Below, piece by piece: positions 1 through 5,094 of a stretch of 5,602 bases of DNA. Every line of letters begins with the position of its first letter. Position 1 is the stretch's first letter. Where the stretch lies: IMG/VR virus record IMGVR_UViG_2563366830_000004, positions 1 to 5,602 of that record; one strand, written 5' to 3'. A program made the translations under genes and the position numbers. Origin of the DNA: a virus. Its lineage: Duplodnaviria; Heunggongvirae; Uroviricota; Caudoviricetes. The notes beneath the pieces were generated by a model. That model had not been told where the DNA came from and did not search any database. It was given only the letters and a program-made list of their open reading frames with translations.

Positions 1-2066
1 CCGCCAGCAGTTTCCAGATCGATAGTCTTACTAAATTCCGGTCCCATATCTCCGGTTTGCGGATCGAAAAATATTGCACCTATTGAGATGATCGGGGCAT
101 CAGGATTTTTTCCCATGGTTTCAAGGTCGATCATTAGATGGTCACACGTCCTGCTGGTGGATGTGATTTCTTGATGACCGTTCACCTTAATTGAGTGATC
201 TGCCGTCTCGCCAGTTTCATTATCGCTATCGTGATGCTGATTGCCGCCAGTGTTCTCCTTGTGTGGATGTTCAGCGCCTTCCATTTCCTCCGGATCATCT
301 TCCTGAACTTCAGGCTGATACTCTTCATCGAATGTTTCCTGGTATGTTGCGTCGCCCATTACCGCGCCACAATCAGGGCAGTTGCCGCCGCCGGTCTGAC
401 CGCAGGCGGTGCAGACTTTTTCCACTTCCTGTTGCGCCACTGATTCAGGCTGTTTCGTTTCTGGCTCGTTTTGTAACGCATTTGGGCTGTTTTGTTCCGC
501 TTTCTGGTCGTTCTGTTCCGTTTCTTGCTGGTTCTGGTTCACAGAATCGCGGGTCTGGTTCCCCTTAACCCATTTCGGATCATTCGGGTCGCTAATCCCT
601 TCAACAAATTCACCACGTGATACTGCAAGCAGTTCATCGGCGTCAGGCTGGCTGATATTGGCTGCCTGCATAATTTTGTTTACTTCGTCAGCGGTAACTT
701 TTACTGACCCTGGTTGTGCGGTCGTGTCAGATGCACCAGTATTTTGTTGTGAACCTGAGTATGTACCGTTTTTGCGGGCGAAATATTCTTCTTTCGTGAT
801 TTCAGTAGCCCCAGCAGACAGCGCCTTATCCAGACCAGAAAGTTTGTTTGCGCGACCGTATTTTTCGCCGTCCTTATCGGTGAAAAGGAAGTAGAACGGT
901 CCCTCACGCTCTACAGATGGTTCGTCTTCCACTTCGCATTCGGTTTTTTCGTTGTCCGGCATTGCCGTTTCCACTGCATCAGTTTCTGGTACTGGTGACG
1001 GGAGAGTACCAGCTGTGCCCTGATTTGTTCCTTCGTCATCTTCAAACACGCCCTTGGTAGTCAGGTATTCAGTGATGTATTTGTTCAGTGCTACGGGATC
1101 TTTGTGAATGTCGATCGGACGCTCACGGACAAGGCCAAAAATAGTCTGACGGTCGTAGCGAACGGCATCGGGTTGTTTGCGCATTGATGCGGAAATGCGC
1201 TTCCAGTCTTCGCGATCTTTGTCGATAACTTCATTTTTTGCCCGGCGATGGATGCTGCCGTCAATGTTTCCGGTATCAATATCGCCAGGCCAGAGAGCGT
1301 AGGCCAGTTCTTCATCCAGCGTTTTCCATGTCTGCTTGTATTCGCGACAAATGGCGGCAGTGACTGGGTTGATTTTTCCTGCTGAGTTTTCAGTGTGCTG
1401 TTGATTGACTCTGGCGCGGGCGAGATCAACAACAGACGTGTATTTTCCAGTCTCTTTGCGCTCTGCGTCCTGCCGTTTTTTCCAGTTACGTAATTCAGCC
1501 TGAATTTCTGGCCATTTGGCACCCGGATTACATTTGTGTTTAACCCATCCGATAGCGAACAGTTTGCGTTCCGGATACATAGCGTTAATTTCAGGCGTTT
1601 TCATCAGTGCTTCAACGATATGCCCGTCAAAGGTAGCAACGTCTTCCTGCAGTAATTCCTGCGCGTCAATCGCCATATCAACGGTGATGTTTTCACATGT
1701 GTCGAACTTAACCATGACAGCGTTCTGTACTTCAGGGGCCAGCTTGTCAAAAGTGACGTTCATCGGATCTGATTCAGTCTCAACCGGGACAAAGGAAGCA
1801 GACGCCTCATCCCAGCGGTTTTCCTGCATATATTCAGCATCCCAGGAATCTAGGGCAGGGCGGGGTATACCGGGTTTATCCTCGCAGACAAGAAATTTAT
1901 AAGCGCAGTCCTGAGCAGCCGGATAATGTTCCAGGAATTGCCAGTGAAATTTTGCGCGGGCGCGACGTTCATCACCGGCTTCAATGGCAGTGGCTACAGC
2001 GACTGCACCTTCTTCCTTTATTGCCTGTTCGTCCGGAATGGCGGCGCAAATAAAGACTTTACTCAT
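1..2066 (-). CDS. Large prophage exonuclease-family protein (RecE / YdfE-like), partial: N-terminal 688 codons, C-terminus beyond the window start
   Basis: Minus-strand frame open from ATG at 2066..2064 down to codon 5..3, checked triplet by triplet with no stop. SD GAGGT about 8 nt upstream. Absent from the ORF track, presumably because there is no stop in the window. N-terminus MSKVFICAAIPDEQAIKEEG. Internal motif ELLAVSRGEFVEGISDPNDPKWVKG. CxxC-x8-CxxC at 369..413. Last in-window residues DHLMIDLETMGKNPDAPIISIGAIFFD. Position at the distal end of the early-left operon matches recE/ydfE in Rac/Qin-type prophages. Family assignment is from memory. Confidence 0.75.
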   Translation of the reverse strand, partial: MSKVFICAAIPDEQAIKEEGAVAVATAIEAGDERRARAKFHWQFLEHYPAAQDCAYKFLVCEDKPGIPRPALDSWDAEYMQENRWDEASASFVPVETESDPMNVTFDKLAPEVQNAVMVKFDTCENITVDMAIDAQELLQEDVATFDGHIVEALMKTPEINAMYPERKLFAIGWVKHKCNPGAKWPEIQAELRNWKKRQDAERKETGKYTSVVDLARARVNQQHTENSAGKINPVTAAICREYKQTWKTLDEELAYALWPGDIDTGNIDGSIHRRAKNEVIDKDREDWKRISASMRKQPDAVRYDRQTIFGLVRERPIDIHKDPVALNKYITEYLTTKGVFEDDEGTNQGTAGTLPSPVPETDAVETAMPDNEKTECEVEDEPSVEREGPFYFLFTDKDGEKYGRANKLSGLDKALSAGATEITKEEYFARKNGTYSGSQQNTGASDTTAQPGSVKVTADEVNKIMQAANISQPDADELLAVSRGEFVEGISDPNDPKWVKGNQTRDSVNQNQQETEQNDQKAEQNSPNALQNEPETKQPESVAQQEVEKVCTACGQTGGGNCPDCGAVMGDATYQETFDEEYQPEVQEDDPEEMEGAEHPHKENTGGNQHHDSDNETGETADHSIKVNGHQEITSTSRTCDHLMIDLETMGKNPDAPIISIGAIFFDPQTGDMGPEFSKTIDLETAG

Positions 2067-2158
2067 TTTGTTTTACCTCATTACAGATTTAAGGGTGAAC
2101 AAATCCCTGCCATTGCTGGCATATAAGAATGAAACCGGATATTTATTACGGAACTGTT

Positions 2159-2350
2159 TTAAAGACCTGCCGGGATTTCGTTATTATCCTGGTGAATGAC
2201 TTTATCGACCGGGTAACAGTTACCGGGAATTTTCTGTTCGGTTGCTGCAGTCACACACTCCTGCATTGTCCTGTGAACACTGACTGCAATATCAACTGGC
2301 TCTCCGGAAACAAGAAAAACTGTCAGAACAAGTGCAAATGCTGTATTCAT
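2159..2350 (-). CDS. ydfD: YdfD-like small membrane (lysis) protein, 63 aa
   Basis: ATG at 2350..2348 overlaps the dicB stop codon (ATGA overlap, translational coupling). SD AAGGA 8 nt upstream. Product MNTAFALVLTVFLVSGEPVDIAV... has a hydrophobic N-terminal segment. The 81-aa ORF-track version (start 2404) begins inside dicB and has no SD. Size and order match my recollection of Qin ydfD. Confidence 0.75.
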   Translation of the reverse strand: MNTAFALVLTVFLVSGEPVDIAVSVHRTMQECVTAATEQKIPGNCYPVDKVIHQDNNEIPAGL

Positions 2351-2535
2351 TGTGCACATCCTTTTTGTATCGGACGTAAACGGGCCAGCATTGAAAGAAT
2401 GCATATTTTATTTAATAACTCCCGTTCGTGTTTTCTCTTGTTAATGGCATCTTCAGTAAATACAGGGTTACTGATAGTGACACCAATTTCAAAACAACCT
2501 TCAGACGTATTAACGTTTGGTAATAACGTTTCCAT
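2347..2535 (-). CDS. dicB: DicB cell-division inhibitor (MinC-targeting small protein), 62 aa
   Basis: ATG at 2535..2533 with SD GAGGA 7 nt upstream. Product METLLPNVNTSEGCFEIGVTISNPVFTEDAINKRKHERELLNKICILSMLARLRPIQKGCAQ, which closely matches my recollection of K-12 DicB (62 aa). DicF lies about 180 nt upstream on the same strand. Confidence 0.85.
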   Translation of the reverse strand: METLLPNVNTSEGCFEIGVTISNPVFTEDAINKRKHERELLNKICILSMLARLRPIQKGCAQ

Positions 2536-2713
2536 TATCGCGTCCTCAACAATGAATTTTGTGATGCAGTGCCTGGTGCCTCCAGGTGACGTTAACCAGT
2601 TAACAATTAACGCCGGGTTAGTTGATGCTCGTTACGCCCGTAAAATACCGCCTTACTGCTTTAACTGTTCCGCGTGCGCATAGCCGCATTCACCGCATCA
2701 CAAAATTCACTTT

Positions 2714-2770
2714 AAAAAGGGCGGCAGAGCAGTCACGGAGTAAAACTGATACCGCCAAATGTCACCAGAA
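2714..2770 (-). ncRNA. dicF: DicF small regulatory RNA (Hfq-dependent, ftsZ-targeting); 5' end approximate
   Basis: Reverse complement of 2714..2770 is TTCTGGTGACATTTGGCGGTATCAGTTTTACTCCGTGACTGCTCTGCCGCCCTTTTT. It ends in a GC-rich stem plus U5 (intrinsic terminator) and matches my recollection of E. coli DicF. Located between ydfC-like and dicB as in the K-12 dicB operon. The mature 5' end comes from processing and cannot be fixed from sequence. Confidence 0.75.
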
Positions 2771-2796
2771 AATTGATAACAGAGGGCGTTGTAGCG

Positions 2797-2833
2797 GGGT
2801 TGTCACTTAAGCGTATGGTCAACCTGACAACCC
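2797..2833 (-). other. Perfect 9-bp stem-loop (GGGTTGTCA / TGACAACCC, 19-nt loop) just 5' of DicF on the operon transcript; candidate RNA processing structure
   Basis: Inverted repeat read directly: arms at 2797..2805 and 2825..2833. No U-run follows on either strand, so it is not a terminator. Confidence 0.45.
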
Positions 2834-3106
2834 GGTGCATTTTCTGGAGCAATGGAGGAAACCCCAGCCATACTTACCGCCGCGCCATTTCGCGGAGTGC
2901 CACAACCGGAAGCGCACGGTCGAACTAAATTTAACGACACCGTACAGAGAGACCAATTTCGCCGTGCGCTTTCGCGTTATGCCCTGACTTTTCAGGGACA
3001 TATCCTTTCAGTAAACTGTCAGTGCCGGATGCTCACCCGTGTCCGGCGCACGCACTCCACCTGACCAGTGGAGAACTCCTTAATTACCAACCCTCAGGAG
3101 GGTGAA

Positions 3107-3385
3107 ATGGATAAAAAGCAAATTGAGGCCCTGCAATCTATTATTGAAGAACAAGATGAAGCTATCAGGATTCTTTCATATCGCACTGATATGATACTAA
3201 ATATGCTTTCTGCATTAACGGCTGCGCTTGGTGGTACAAAAACAAACGTATACCGCGAAGTTGTTATTCAACAGATAGATAAATTTGAAAAAACCATACC
3301 AGGTATTAATGCTCATCTTGCAGAACAAGAGAAAGACCATGCTCTTATGGCAATTTCTTCAGTAGCTCTCCCGAAAGTTGAGTAG
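3107..3385 (+). CDS. Hypothetical 92-aa acidic, predicted helical protein; AT-rich moron convergent to the early-left operon
   Basis: ATG at 3107 preceded by SD AGGAGG (3096..3101) with a 5-nt spacer; stop TAG at 3383..3385. Product MDKKQIEALQSIIEEQDEAIRILSYRTDMILNMLSALTAALGGTKTNVYREVVIQQIDKFEKTIPGINAHLAEQEKDHALMAISSVALPKVE. About 37% G+C by hand count, versus roughly 50% in the neighbouring large gene. The ORF-track start at 3068 (GTG) lies inside a hairpin and lacks an SD. Confidence 0.7.
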   Translation: MDKKQIEALQSIIEEQDEAIRILSYRTDMILNMLSALTAALGGTKTNVYREVVIQQIDKFEKTIPGINAHLAEQEKDHALMAISSVALPKVE

Positions 3386-3746
3386 TTTTAATTGTTGTTT
3401 TGAAATAATCACTGCTTTCACATTTGAGTGATTTCATGGCAATCCAAATGCGGGCCTCTGTGCCTGCATTTGGTTCCAGTTGCTGTAGACGTTTTGCGTC
3501 TTCCAAAAGTAAGGCGATAATGTGTTTCAGCTTCTCATCATTTGCTTGATTCTTGTTTTCAGGCGAATTCTGTCCGCCGAATAGGCGCTTCTCTTCATAC
3601 AGACCTATAAAGGCACGACGCACGTTACCGGATATAGTATCGATGGTTTCCTTTTCTACAGTACTCAGGTCAAGAGTCGCCAGTTGAGAGCGAACCACAT
3701 TCGCTGCCATTTCCTGGAATGGCATTGGTAAATCTTTAAATTCCAT
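3345..3746 (-). CDS. Hypothetical 133-aa protein, no recognisable motif; member of the early-left operon
   Basis: ATG at 3746..3744 with SD GAGG 6 nt upstream, 22 nt after the ydfC-like stop. Product MEFKDLPMPFQEMAANVVRSQLATLDLSTVEKETIDTISGNVRRAFIGLYEEKRLFGG... The last 41 nt overlap the 3' end of the plus-strand 92-aa gene. Confidence 0.7.
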   Translation of the reverse strand: MEFKDLPMPFQEMAANVVRSQLATLDLSTVEKETIDTISGNVRRAFIGLYEEKRLFGGQNSPENKNQANDEKLKHIIALLLEDAKRLQQLEPNAGTEARIWIAMKSLKCESSDYFKTTIKTTQLSGELLKKLP

Positions 3747-3768
3747 TATTAGCCTCGTTGGTTAGCTA

Positions 3769-3987
3769 TTAACGTGGGTATGTAACCATTCTGGCAATGC
3801 TTAATGCCGCTGCTTTTTCCAGCCTGGTGATATCCTGCTCCAGAGCGGACAGATTTTCAGCCTGCTTAGTCCTGGCTTCATTGGCCCATTTCAGATCCTG
3901 CACTGCATTAATTTTCTGGCGCATCCACTCATAAAGTTCATCATCGGTATAGTCTGGCGCGATGATGACGGGTTCTCGTTTCTGCAT
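3769..3987 (-). CDS. ydfC: YdfC-like small protein, 72 aa
   Basis: ATG at 3987..3985 with SD GAGGA 7 nt upstream. Product MQKREPVIIAPDYTDDELYEWMRQKINAVQDLKWANEARTKQAENLSALEQDITRLEKAAALSIARMVTYPR. Size and operon position match the third gene of the K-12 dicB operon (recollection). Confidence 0.75.
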   Translation of the reverse strand: MQKREPVIIAPDYTDDELYEWMRQKINAVQDLKWANEARTKQAENLSALEQDITRLEKAAALSIARMVTYPR

Positions 3988-4016
3988 ACTGATTCCTCGC
4001 GGTGCTGTTTCGCTTA

Positions 4017-4145
4017 TCAGCCGTTAGATTTTCCCGAACTGGAAAGCGCCTGTTTAAATTCACTGAAGCTGAGAGCTTCTTCGCCTTCGGCAAGACCATC
4101 GAAGTATTCTTCGTAAGCCTTTTCCATGATTGTGTCGAAATCCAT
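4017..4145 (-). CDS. ydfB: YdfB-like small protein, 42 aa
   Basis: ATG at 4145..4143 sits 1 nt after the upstream gene's TGA (GAGTGATATGG), SD-like AGGTGA upstream; stop TGA at 4017..4019. Product MDFDTIMEKAYEEYFDGLAEGEEALSFSEFKQALSSSGKSNG. Below the ORF-track size cut-off. Size and position match K-12 ydfB (recollection). Confidence 0.65.
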   Translation of the reverse strand: MDFDTIMEKAYEEYFDGLAEGEEALSFSEFKQALSSSGKSNG

Positions 4146-4146
4146 A

Positions 4147-4302
4147 TCACTCACCTGAGTTTCTTTCCAGCCAGCGACGGGCACCATTTTCGGTTTTAAA
4201 CGTTTTGCTTTTGGTATACGTCATCGCGGTGAATGTGCCGTCCTGGTTGGGAAACACGCCGTACACCAGAGATTCGTTGTTGCCAAGCTCGATAGTATCC
4301 AT
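4147..4302 (-). CDS. ydfA: YdfA-like small protein, 51 aa; first gene of the early-left operon
   Basis: ATG at 4302..4300 with SD GAGG and a 5-nt spacer; stop TGA at 4147..4149. Product MDTIELGNNESLVYGVFPNQDGTFTAMTYTKSKTFKTENGARRWLERNSGE. Below the ORF-track cut-off. Size and position match K-12 ydfA (recollection). Confidence 0.7.
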   Translation of the reverse strand: MDTIELGNNESLVYGVFPNQDGTFTAMTYTKSKTFKTENGARRWLERNSGE

Positions 4303-4371
4303 GCTGACCTCATTTCCCCTTAACGCCGGGTGGCGGAACTAAAACCTACAGCGCCGTGCTGTTCTTGATAG

Positions 4372-4394
4372 AAATATTAGTAACGCGGATATTT
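4372..4394. promoter_or_regulatory. Candidate left operator: inverted repeat AAATAT-N11-ATATTT overlapping the -10 and spacer of the leftward promoter
   Basis: Arms at 4372..4377 and 4389..4394. The 9-mer AAATATTAG at 4372..4380 recurs at 4460..4468 and, inverted, at 5088..5096 in the right operator region. Confidence 0.45.
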
Positions 4395-4402
4395 TAAGTC
4401 AA
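4374..4402 (-). promoter_or_regulatory. Leftward early promoter (PL / dicBp equivalent)
   Basis: On the minus strand: -35 TTGACT (4402..4397), 17-nt spacer, -10 TAATAT (4379..4374). Predicted start near 4367, about 65 nt upstream of the ydfA-like ATG. Confidence 0.6.
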
Positions 4403-4499
4403 CAGTATGGCGTATGATATTTTTGATTTGGTAACTATGTAAATGTTTTTTCAAGGGAAAAATATTAGTTATACAGCTGATTTGCAGAAGTTATGGCAC

Positions 4500-4529
4500 A
4501 AAAAAACCGACTAAGACGTCGGTTTTTTT
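4500..4529. terminator. Bidirectional rho-independent terminator between the repressor gene and the PL/OL region
   Basis: A7 (4500..4506), stem CCGAC / GTCGG (4507..4511 and 4518..4522) with a 6-nt loop, then T7 (4523..4529). Lies 26 nt downstream of the repressor stop codon. Confidence 0.8.
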
Positions 4530-4555
4530 GTTGTGGATGGGGTAGTGAGCGGTGG

Positions 4556-5017
4556 CTACTGGTTACGTTTCTTTAGTGCCAGCATGTTCTCGAAGGCTTC
4601 CTCGTAGAGCTTGTTTAGTCCACGTAGCTGGTTAAGGAGTTTGGCTTTTTCTGACGCAGGTAGAATCTCGAAGAGGTTAAGTAACTCTGCCTGTTCTTCA
4701 TTGACCAGCCTCCATCCTTTGCCTGAAAAGTTATCATCATAAGTATCTGATGATCTTACATAATTCATTAAGTCTTTAAGGTCTTCTCGAATGTCCTCTG
4801 GTTTTACCTTTAACAGAGCCGCAAATTTTAGCGCAGCGTCGGTATTTACCGGTATCTTGCCGTTCAGATACTGGCTAACGGTGCCTTGAGATTCGAATCC
4901 CAACAACTCAGCCGCCAGCTCTTGAGTCAGCTTCAGCTCTTTTTTTCTTGCATTCCATGCGGCTTTTAAATTCTTGCTCGCTTCTGGAGTTGCAATCACT
5001 TCGCGTGTTTTTTTCAT
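4556..5017 (-). CDS. Prophage repressor, CI/DicA-type HTH (XRE family), 153 aa, without a LexA-like S24 cleavage domain
   Basis: ATG at 5017..5015, stop TAG at 4556..4558. The N-terminal part KELKLTQELAAELLGFESQGTVSQYLNGKIPVNTDAALKFAALLKV has the lambda CI / P22 C2 HTH pattern. The C-terminal part (ELLNLFEILPASEKAKLLNQL...) resembles the DicA C-terminus as I recall it and has no Ser-Lys peptidase motifs. Sits upstream of the dicB-type operon and divergent from a Cro-like gene. Confidence 0.85.
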   Translation of the reverse strand: MKKTREVIATPEASKNLKAAWNARKKELKLTQELAAELLGFESQGTVSQYLNGKIPVNTDAALKFAALLKVKPEDIREDLKDLMNYVRSSDTYDDNFSGKGWRLVNEEQAELLNLFEILPASEKAKLLNQLRGLNKLYEEAFENMLALKKRNQ

Positions 5018-5023
5018 ACATAG

Positions 5024-5051
5024 AGTTTATTTGTTTTACCAATATTATCAA
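5024..5051 (-). promoter_or_regulatory. Repressor (maintenance-type) promoter giving a leaderless or near-leaderless mRNA
   Basis: On the minus strand: -35 TTGATA (5051..5046), 16-nt spacer, -10 TAAACT (5029..5024), only 6 nt before the ATG. There is no SD ahead of the repressor start, as for lambda PRM. Confidence 0.5.
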
Positions 5052-5065
5052 AGATAGTCTGGCTA

Positions 5066-5094
5066 TTGATCTTTAAAATTAGCGGGGCTAATAT
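5066..5094 (+). promoter_or_regulatory. Rightward promoter (PR equivalent) for the Cro/YdaS-like gene
   Basis: -35 TTGATC (5066..5071), 17-nt spacer, -10 TAATAT (5089..5094). Predicted start near 5101; SD GAAGG at 5114..5118; ATG at 5125. Confidence 0.6.
5078..5092. promoter_or_regulatory. Candidate right operator: perfect palindrome ATTAGC-GGG-GCTAAT overlapping the PR spacer and -10
   Basis: Read directly from the sequence. Shares the AAATATTAG core (inverted) with the left operator region. Confidence 0.45.

Follow-up and report, generated by a model that had tools for sequence, protein, structure and literature searches.

Comparative sequence analysis of a small gene opposite the DicF/DicB operon: one allele of a hypervariable slot in lambdoid prophages

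In the Rac prophage of Escherichia coli K-12 the genes are arranged in the order racR, ydaG, ydaF (DUF1391), sieB on the + strand, the small RNA (sRNA) KilS, kilR, ydaE, racC and recE. SieB is a membrane protein, and in lambda its gene is annotated as convergent with N. The stretch of virus DNA studied here, positions 1 to 5,602 of IMG/VR record IMGVR_UViG_2563366830_000004 (5,602 nucleotides, nt; hereafter the window), covers the immunity and early-left region of a Qin/DicBF-type lambdoid prophage. It carries a repressor gene, ydfA (DUF1391), ydfB, ydfC, a gene for 133 amino acids (aa), the 92-aa gene that is our subject (3107-3385, + strand; WP_000358769.1), DicF, dicB and an exonuclease gene. 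As the original prediction held, the 92-aa gene lies opposite to its neighbours, all of which are on the - strand. Its position within the early-left operon and its opposite orientation are those of Rac sieB, which also overlaps the 3' end of a converging early gene, by 4 nt. The gene had been credited with the logic of sieB, and given this shared position and orientation the analogy is positionally exact, but it does not extend to the products: the 92-aa protein gave no alignment to Rac SieB (BLASTP, E ≤100), SieB is longer (162-184 aa), and the 92-aa protein is predicted to be soluble with no membrane segment.

Like the lambdoid morons of the Hendrix type (HK97 gp15, lambda lom and bor), the 92-aa gene is an extra gene that is present or absent among collinear prophages, lies between conserved operon genes, and has a low, deviant G+C content as well as an orientation and signals independent of the operon around it. 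Classical morons have their own promoter and terminator, whereas here unrelated open reading frames (ORFs) are swapped behind one conserved structured leader with a breakpoint at the ATG, and the version found in the window (allele A) has no recognisable terminator, albeit another version (allele E) has one. The anti-phage hot spots of P2-like prophages and P4-like satellites likewise combine a fixed position and conserved flanks with alternative cargos, but their cargo consists for the most part of large or multi-gene defence systems, and it was tested for phage resistance (Rousset et al. 2022, PMC9122126). In contrast, the slot described below carries just one ORF, of 57-94 aa, which matches no defence model. 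The reading that we favour, with evenly balanced confidence, is that the 92-aa gene is a lysogen-side accessory gene, or moron, which would be served by a conserved promoter and by a leader that gates translation, and whose product would be a small, soluble protein with a binding function.

The 92-aa gene and its slot

Judged by its substitution pattern, the 92-aa ORF is a genuine protein-coding gene. Codon alignment with Salmonella homologues (72-74% identical) gave ratios of nonsynonymous to synonymous substitution rates (dN/dS) of 0.08-0.25 at dS values of 0.67-0.89, which argues for a real gene and not a chance ORF, and the differences by codon position (20/11/32) fell mostly in third positions. 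The perfect Shine-Dalgarno (SD) hexamer AGGAGG that the original prediction had noted is located at 3096-3101 with 5 nt between it and the ATG at 3107, and the G+C content, given there as about 37%, is 0.373 and lies in a trough of 0.36-0.37 across 3101-3400, compared with 0.44-0.54 on either side. An alternative start at GTG 3068 (105 aa) was rejected because the homologues begin at the ATG, and because the SD and a replacement breakpoint described below indicate 3107.

A search of 5.8 billion proteins gave 22 relatives of the protein, all from E. coli or Salmonella and including the 93-aa Salmonella proteins with 72-74% identity, and four more proteins (90-93 aa, 33-44% identity) came from a profile search of 1.84 billion representatives. 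Allele B, a 91-aa ORF that occupies this site in other E. coli prophages, aligns end to end at 24% identity. The homologues at 24-44% identity preserve the length of the protein as well as R26, L31, S35, R50, E75, K76 and S85, and full-length homologues down to 24-33% identity were found in different mobile elements. Two loci with distant homologues (L151 and L152) have them in the immunity region, adjacent to and convergent with cI-type (S24) repressors, and in two others (L149 and L150) the homologue is present without the partner gene that accompanies it in the window. No relative was found in a scan of GTDB representative genomes, viral-contig scans with the distant homologues P0143 and P0144 gave none either, and a literature search on WP_000358769 returned nothing.

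That the ORF is non-functional, i.e. a chance ORF or a decaying remnant annotated by a pipeline, would be consistent with its annotation as a hypothetical protein only, with the frameshifts seen in 5 of 53 loci, and with the lack of a family or fold match. However, the dN/dS values, the third-position bias and the spread of full-length homologues over different mobile elements all speak against it, as does the finding that 121 of the 127 copies in complete E. coli genomes are at least 99% identical. Within the limits of sequence evidence, the substitution pattern refutes this explanation, and we consider it extremely improbable.

Comparison across prophages indicates that the 92-aa gene is one allele of a hypervariable small-gene slot of DicF/DicB-type and Rac-type lambdoid prophages. 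The slot separates the early genes closest to the promoter from the pair formed by the sRNA and the division inhibitor. When the window was compared with the dicBF region of K-12 (BLAST), positions 1300-3092 and 3749-4340 were contiguous in the K-12 Qin prophage. Qin thus joins 3092 directly to 3749 and has no gene at the slot, in agreement with the original prediction that K-12 has none between ydfC and dicF. The missing segment (3093-3748, 656 bp) contains the SD, the 92-aa gene and the 133-aa gene. A second type of exchange was observed in the PPompW/Stx phage L002 (allele D), where homology to the window ends at 3106 and restarts at 3596, and where the replaced segment (3107-3595) has given way to an unrelated 77-aa ORF, the left breakpoint lying exactly at the ATG. 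Other prophages have a 73-aa ORF, the 91-aa ORF or no ORF at the site. The same upstream sequence, ...GTGGAGAACTCCTTAATTACCAACCCTCAGGAGGGTGAAATG, precedes each slot ORF, unrelated ones included, and the slot ORFs of every allele have about 36-37% G+C against 45-53% in the flanks.

The extent of this exchange was assessed in three collections. The N-domain of the 133-aa protein led to 80 IMG/VR loci, in which allele A was intact in 48 and frameshifted in 5, allele B was present in 10, and 18 had no small ORF. A further 13 loci carry an unrelated 57-aa ORF with its own terminator (allele E), which has displaced most of allele A. They still retain the final 56 nt of allele A as well as the partner gene with its tail. 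A scan with a 14-mer from the leader gave 85 leader copies, 37 of them followed by an SD and an ORF and 48 not. The 37 filled slots hold at least 11 unrelated ORFs of 57-94 aa, and the remaining copies show either a K-12-like empty junction (about 25 of the 85) or the partner gene abutting the leader. The check for presence or absence in related prophages, proposed along with the moron idea, has thus given absence from K-12 and, elsewhere, one of these alternative ORFs or none. Finally, the flanks of the site were matched in 3470 of 5426 complete E. coli genomes, with allele A in 127, B in 198, C in 88, D in 650 (carriers include O157:H7) and E in 48.

Every cargo family is a PHROG of unknown function. 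The sole family hint among the cargos comes from a 94-aa allele in the IMG/VR locus L310 (MAKFTVRIELRDSS...), which barely reaches the Pfam cut-off for GhoS (21.2 bits against 21), the endoribonuclease antitoxin of a type V toxin-antitoxin system. With regard to the ends of the slot, the segment missing from K-12 is flanked by an imperfect inverted repeat, TTACCAAC ... GTTGGTTA (3083-3092 and 3754-3764). The repeat motif stands before both start codons, as TTACCAACCCTCAGGAGG..ATG and as TAACCAACGAGGCTAATAATG on the - strand, and a CAACC motif lies ahead of the SD in all contexts, the distant ones included.

The 92-aa protein itself matches PHROG 18692 over its whole length (E 8e-63; residues 1-92 aligned to all 92 profile positions), a family of unknown function whose profile is also matched by the distant homologues P0143-P0147. 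The product had been described as acidic and helical, and both properties were borne out: its pI is 5.1 at about 10 kDa, it is predicted to be all-helical, and the AlphaFold model has three helices at a confidence score (pLDDT) of 79. The hydrophobic stretch that had been pointed out does exist, but its motif, RxD(I/M)xLNxLSALTxALGG, includes conserved polar residues and the highest 19-residue Kyte-Doolittle mean of the protein is 0.93. It is thus too weak and too polar for a membrane span, and on these properties the protein is soluble without a membrane segment. In size, acidity and helical content the protein resembles the anti-adaptor IraP (about 86-92 aa), and one family member (E 0.039) and one unrelated slot allele (E 0.062) gave sub-threshold matches to IraP in Pfam (PF10796). 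These matches are well below the curated cut-off (about 15 against 23.2 bits) and probably reflect coiled-coil composition, so that they are a lead only and not a sign of membership.

The leader and its promoter-like site

The DNA immediately upstream of the slot ORF specifies a conserved leader with three predicted helices (3022-3100, + strand). Hairpin 1 (3022-3049, +) consists of an 11-bp stem, in which three G.U pairs are conserved, and a loop of 6 nt, and would form the 5'-terminal stem-loop of the putative mRNA. Hairpin 2 (3055-3073, +; CUCCAC/GUGGAG) was evaluated together with the other helices in an alignment (A7) of ten contexts, namely five E. coli alleles, two Salmonella prophages, a P2-like element and two others. 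It is paired in 88% of the cells of the alignment, with compensatory changes in two pairs (CCCAAC/GUUGGG in the P2-like element L148 and CCACACG/CGUGUUGG in the Salmonella prophage L009). In the third helix (3076-3101, +) an anti-SD, CUCCU at 3076-3080, pairs with AGGAG at 3096-3100; 92% of the cells are paired, and three of the five pairs are changed on both sides (e.g. U-A to A-U in L004, L009 and L148).

For the leader as a whole, 90% of the cells are paired and seven pairs show compensatory changes, counts which are inflated by the relatedness of the sequences, although the wobble positions still persist in the most distant contexts. None of 500 shuffles was as good, and slid controls were only about 40% paired. 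The pairing depends on the strand, with 180 of 200 cells paired on the + strand and 148 of 200 on the - strand, and with 36 G.U against 4 A.C cells. The 90 nt before the ATG fold on the + strand with -37.7 kcal/mol (z -3.6, 0 of 200 shuffles as good), compared with z -0.8 on the - strand. By these measures the leader structure is valid on the + strand only.

A candidate sigma-70 promoter (2989-3017, +) precedes the leader, with a -35 element TTTTCA at 2989-2994, a 17-nt spacer and a -10 element TAAACT at 3012-3017, and no other + strand site within 150 nt upstream of the ATG scored higher. In five diverged contexts (window-type, L004, L009, L148 and L149) a similar site has its -10 element ending 6-9 nt before hairpin 1, and the sites in the last four differ in sequence while keeping the same position. 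This positional conservation is suggestive of a promoter for the slot. Together, the strand-specific leader and the positionally conserved promoter-like site argue for transcription of the + strand of the slot. Since the SD is held in a conserved helix, translation of the 92-aa gene looks regulated and not simply strong; the consensus SD of the original prediction is thus confirmed as a sequence, but is predicted to be paired with the anti-SD.

In Rfam, nothing but DicF was matched within 2700-3800, even at E ≤5, and no model covers the leader. A covariance model built from the leader found one copy per locus, always at the slot, and gave no match in lambda or Rac. The leader of sieB is its own, common to Rac and lambda and unrelated to the slot leader, and the idea of a leader shared with sieB was rejected on these grounds. 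The flank beside the sRNA (...GCGCCTTCGTGTTGTGCCC...) is common to Rac, Salmonella and the window (K-12 Rac, L233 2906-3660, against window 2719-3385). Rac and the window, which also share the gene order, appear to be variants of a single ancestral module that differ in their cargo.

Empty slots, i.e. K-12 Qin (L003) and many IMG/VR contigs, keep the promoter-like site and two leader hairpins (window 2989-3092); in K-12 the SD arm of the third helix falls inside the missing segment. There, some 60 nt separate the leader from a weak terminator-like hairpin on the + strand (window 3792-3809), which lies within the 3' end of ydfC, and an empty slot could yield an unannotated antisense RNA of about 160 nt. 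The prophage sRNA svsR (PMC12803456) belongs to a different locus.

These empty slots support an explanation at the RNA level, in which the + strand promoter and leader would serve mainly to send antisense RNA into the early-left operon, as a safety device that damps leaky expression of DicF/DicB or KilS/KilR in lysogens, and in which the ORFs would be passengers of minor importance. The promoter-like site and two hairpins are indeed kept where there is no ORF, as in K-12 and about 25 of the 85 leader copies (others have the partner gene abutting), a short terminated RNA could be formed there, and DicF and DicB are toxic on expression (PMC5069750). However, the 92-aa protein is under clear purifying selection, and all filled slots retain a consensus SD, its spacing to the ATG and the covarying SD/anti-SD helix, features that are relevant to translation only. 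For ydfC, moreover, neither the tables of K-12 RNA 3' ends nor the ROSE promoter tables show an antisense signal. We regard the safety device as quite unlikely.

The convergent partner and the early-left region

The original prediction treated the 92-aa gene as solitary. In fact it shares its last 41 nt (3345-3385) with the 3' end of a convergent early-left gene for 133 aa (3345-3746, - strand; PHROG 1363, WP_000394529.1), which belongs to the same insertion absent from K-12. The 133-aa protein is modular and consists of an N-domain (aa 1-62), a core motif LKHIIALLLEDAKRLQQLEPNAGTEARI and a C-terminal tail. Elsewhere the N-domain (PHROGs 6937, 2151 and 9419) is joined to at least four different C-terminal parts, and the core motif occurs with other tails and no small ORF. 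The small gene travels with the partner tail. The core motif, in the form LKHVIALLLEDAKRLQQxEPNAGTEARI, also starts stand-alone genes with unrelated tails (L223-L232), and there is a DNA match in an Aeromonas phage.

The 41-nt overlap is also found in Salmonella prophages (L004-L006 and L009), where the partner is a stand-alone 71-aa protein, and in the P2-like element L148, where it is a 214-aa CII-like protein with an XRE-type helix-turn-helix (HTH). The tail motif (D/E)Y(F/L)xxxIxxTQ(L/I)SxELL recurs among the partners, and differences in tail length are multiples of three. The partner of allele B has a different yet alignable C-terminal domain (C-domain B), which is found with the 91-aa ORF, with the unrelated 73-aa ORF or with none. 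Beside the distant homologues, L151 (739-906, -) and L152 (488-664, -) have short ORFs of 44-58 aa, uncalled by gene finders, that read ...EASIL(E/D)YLxxEIxxTQ(L/I)S... and share 74 and 101 nt with the 3' end of the homologue. They lie directly downstream of likely early-left operators, and what is conserved in them is similar to the tail of the 133-aa protein.

Such an arrangement recalls lambda OOP and cII, as a convergent transcript runs over the 3' end of an early regulatory gene, and the partner in L148 is CII-like. OOP is a 77-nt non-coding RNA, whereas the convergent transcript here encodes a conserved protein. The 92-aa gene and its convergent neighbour could form one unit that tunes an early-left regulator and does not act on other phages. 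Either the two mRNAs would regulate each other through the overlap in the manner of OOP and cII, or the small protein would bind the conserved tail of the partner as inhibitor, stabiliser or antitoxin. Retention of the overlap at 44-74% protein identity with partners of 133, 71 and 214 aa favours such coupling, as do the recurrence of the tail motif (including the short uncalled ORFs over the homologues in L151 and L152), the tail lengths in steps of three, and the pairing of the 24%-identical allele B with an alignable C-domain. In contrast, the 13 allele E loci have an unrelated ORF and yet keep the partner with its tail, along with the final 56 nt of allele A, C-domain B is not tied to one small ORF, frameshifted copies of allele A stand beside an intact partner, and L149 and L150 lack a partner altogether; conservation of the tail within the overlap may also just mirror the conserved C-terminus of the small protein. 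Allele E beside an intact partner and the partner-less homologues weaken in particular the idea of a strict cognate pair, and we consider coupling rather unlikely. A type II toxin-antitoxin pair, understood as two co-directional, co-transcribed and always co-occurring genes with a recognisable toxin or antitoxin fold, was rejected, since the two genes are convergent, the partner outlasts replacement or frameshift of the small gene, and the NCBIfam RelB-like match is noise (15.6 bits against a cut-off of 50).

The repressor gene and the early-left genes of the window lie on the - strand. The repressor gene (4556-5017) encodes a DicA-like, HTH-only protein of 153 aa without an S24 peptidase domain. 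It is followed by ydfA (DUF1391; 4147-4302), a ydfB-like ORF, ydfC (3769-3987), the 133-aa gene, the DicF sRNA that flanks the slot (2719-2770; Rfam RF00039, 77 bits), dicB (2347-2535; Pfam DicB, 129 bits), a DUF1482 gene and then a gene for a RecE-type exonuclease. A consensus scan placed early-left promoter-like sites of the pL/dicBp type between the repressor gene and ydfA (4374-4443, -; TTTACA-18-TATCAT and TTGACT-17-TAATAT), and transcripts from these sites would cross the 92-aa gene in antisense. A 98%-identical copy in E. coli 118UI belongs to a prophage integrated beside ompW, where the 92-aa ORF (WP_000358769.1) and the 133-aa ORF (WP_000394529.1) are both annotated as hypothetical proteins; E. 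coli 042, ML35 and BEN2908 are natural carriers as well. At the other end of the window, an IS3-family element (5362-5602; terminal repeat TGAACCGCCCCGGG..., transposase C-terminus on the - strand) cuts a + strand ydaS/cro-like gene at 5361, leaving 80 aa compared with 91 aa in the intact relative L001. This prophage copy is thus damaged on its early-right side.

The type of repressor bears on a further explanation, namely that the gene has its own promoter and acts for the phage during infection or induction, in anti-defence, in host takeover, or as a modulator akin to cIII or an antirepressor. Proteins that are small, acidic and helical are typical of the inhibitors that phages direct against host proteins, the repressor lacks the S24 peptidase domain and Gifsy phages with such repressors reportedly use small antirepressors, and the SD-sequestering leader suggests conditional translation. 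The induction route of prophages with an HTH-only repressor is not evident from the window. A LexA box was not found in the window with the 20-nt consensus at up to three mismatches, and the pattern CTGT-N8-ACAG (up to one mismatch) had three matches (2271, 4005 and 4050), all of them outside the region upstream of the 92-aa gene. A LexA-controlled antirepressor of the Gifsy GfoA/GfhA or 186 Tum type was rejected because the promoter region of the gene has no LexA box. The gene would also run head-on into the strong early-left operon at just the time when that operon is active, and homologues occur beside cleavable cI-type (S24) repressors as well. A role in infection or induction is, in our view, very unlikely.

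Proposed role and meaning of the slot

In the favoured reading of the 92-aa gene as a lysogen-side moron, a weak sigma-70 promoter (-10 element at 3012-3017) would start a + strand mRNA at the foot of hairpin 1, and a leader of about 85 nt, with two hairpins and the SD-sequestering helix, would stabilise this mRNA and gate its translation. Transcription would take place while the early-left promoter is repressed, and after induction the antisense early-left transcripts across the whole gene would shut it down. The product, a predicted soluble and acidic three-helix protein, has neither a catalytic motif nor a membrane segment and hence most likely acts by binding another protein, either of an incoming phage or of the host, which may benefit the lysogen through exclusion, defence or host modulation. 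That the gene could act independently of its partner is indicated by allele E, which stands beside an intact partner in the place of most of allele A, and by the partner-less homologues in L149 and L150.

The moron-like nature of the gene, its hot-spot position and the analogy to sieB stand on the comparisons given above. Of the moron claim, the absence from K-12, the low G+C content, the opposite strand and the location in a hot spot of exchange have held up, a defence-model match has not been obtained, and expression in the lysogen, silencing by converging transcription and an anti-phage role are what we infer. The sieB logic likewise holds for position and orientation but not for similarity to SieB or for a membrane segment.

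Several results weigh against the favoured reading. The promoter-like site is weak (4/6 and 4/6 matches to consensus) and was missed by a stricter consensus scan, and no terminator-like site was found on the + strand between 3386 and 3790. The K-12 3'-end tables list nothing antisense to ydfC, although K-12 retains the promoter-like site and two leader hairpins; on expression of the 92-aa gene from a repressed prophage the K-12 tables are uninformative. The conservation of the 41-nt overlap in E. coli, Salmonella and the P2-like element, at 44-74% protein identity, hints at coupling that a free-standing moron would not need. Among the 53 allele A loci in IMG/VR, five (L085, L115 and three similar) are frameshifted after codon 23 (MDKKQIEALQSIIEKQDEAIRILFIS...), with the convergent partner still intact, and selection is thus not universal. 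The homology searches and structure prediction suggested for the protein gave no characterised family or fold: it matched none of the PADLOC-DB 2.0 defence models (for its homologues, the other slot alleles and the 133-aa partner there was just noise, E ≥0.0045), no Pfam family at E ≤0.1 and no NCBIfam family, and no solved or viral fold beyond a generic three-helix topology.

A wider proposal, which we put forward tentatively and consider doubtful, is that the locus is an undescribed plug-in slot of DicBF-type, Rac-type and some P2-like prophages, in which one promoter and one riboregulated leader would serve lysogen expression of unrelated inhibitors or modulators of 57-94 aa, which converging early-left transcription would silence on induction. 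If true, the slot would be a reservoir of miniature exclusion factors that current defence-finding tools miss, with a large and fast-turning-over cargo of single-protein inhibitors of superinfecting phages or host modulators.

The 92-aa gene itself is uncharacterised, and the architecture of the slot is more interesting than the gene. If the slot is not expressed, the gene is an ordinary uncharacterised prophage ORF. Prophages of the DicF/DicB type are found in most E. coli, as the matched flanks in complete genomes indicate, and the five counted alleles, each present in 48 to 650 genomes, are all annotated as hypothetical proteins only. Transcription of the + strand would run head-on into the DicF/DicB operon and thus bears on the silencing of a toxic module. 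Expression in lysogens would make the shared leader a new case of a translational gate reused for many cargos, and the slot would then offer a compact and easily clonable set of single small proteins whose targets could be screened directly.

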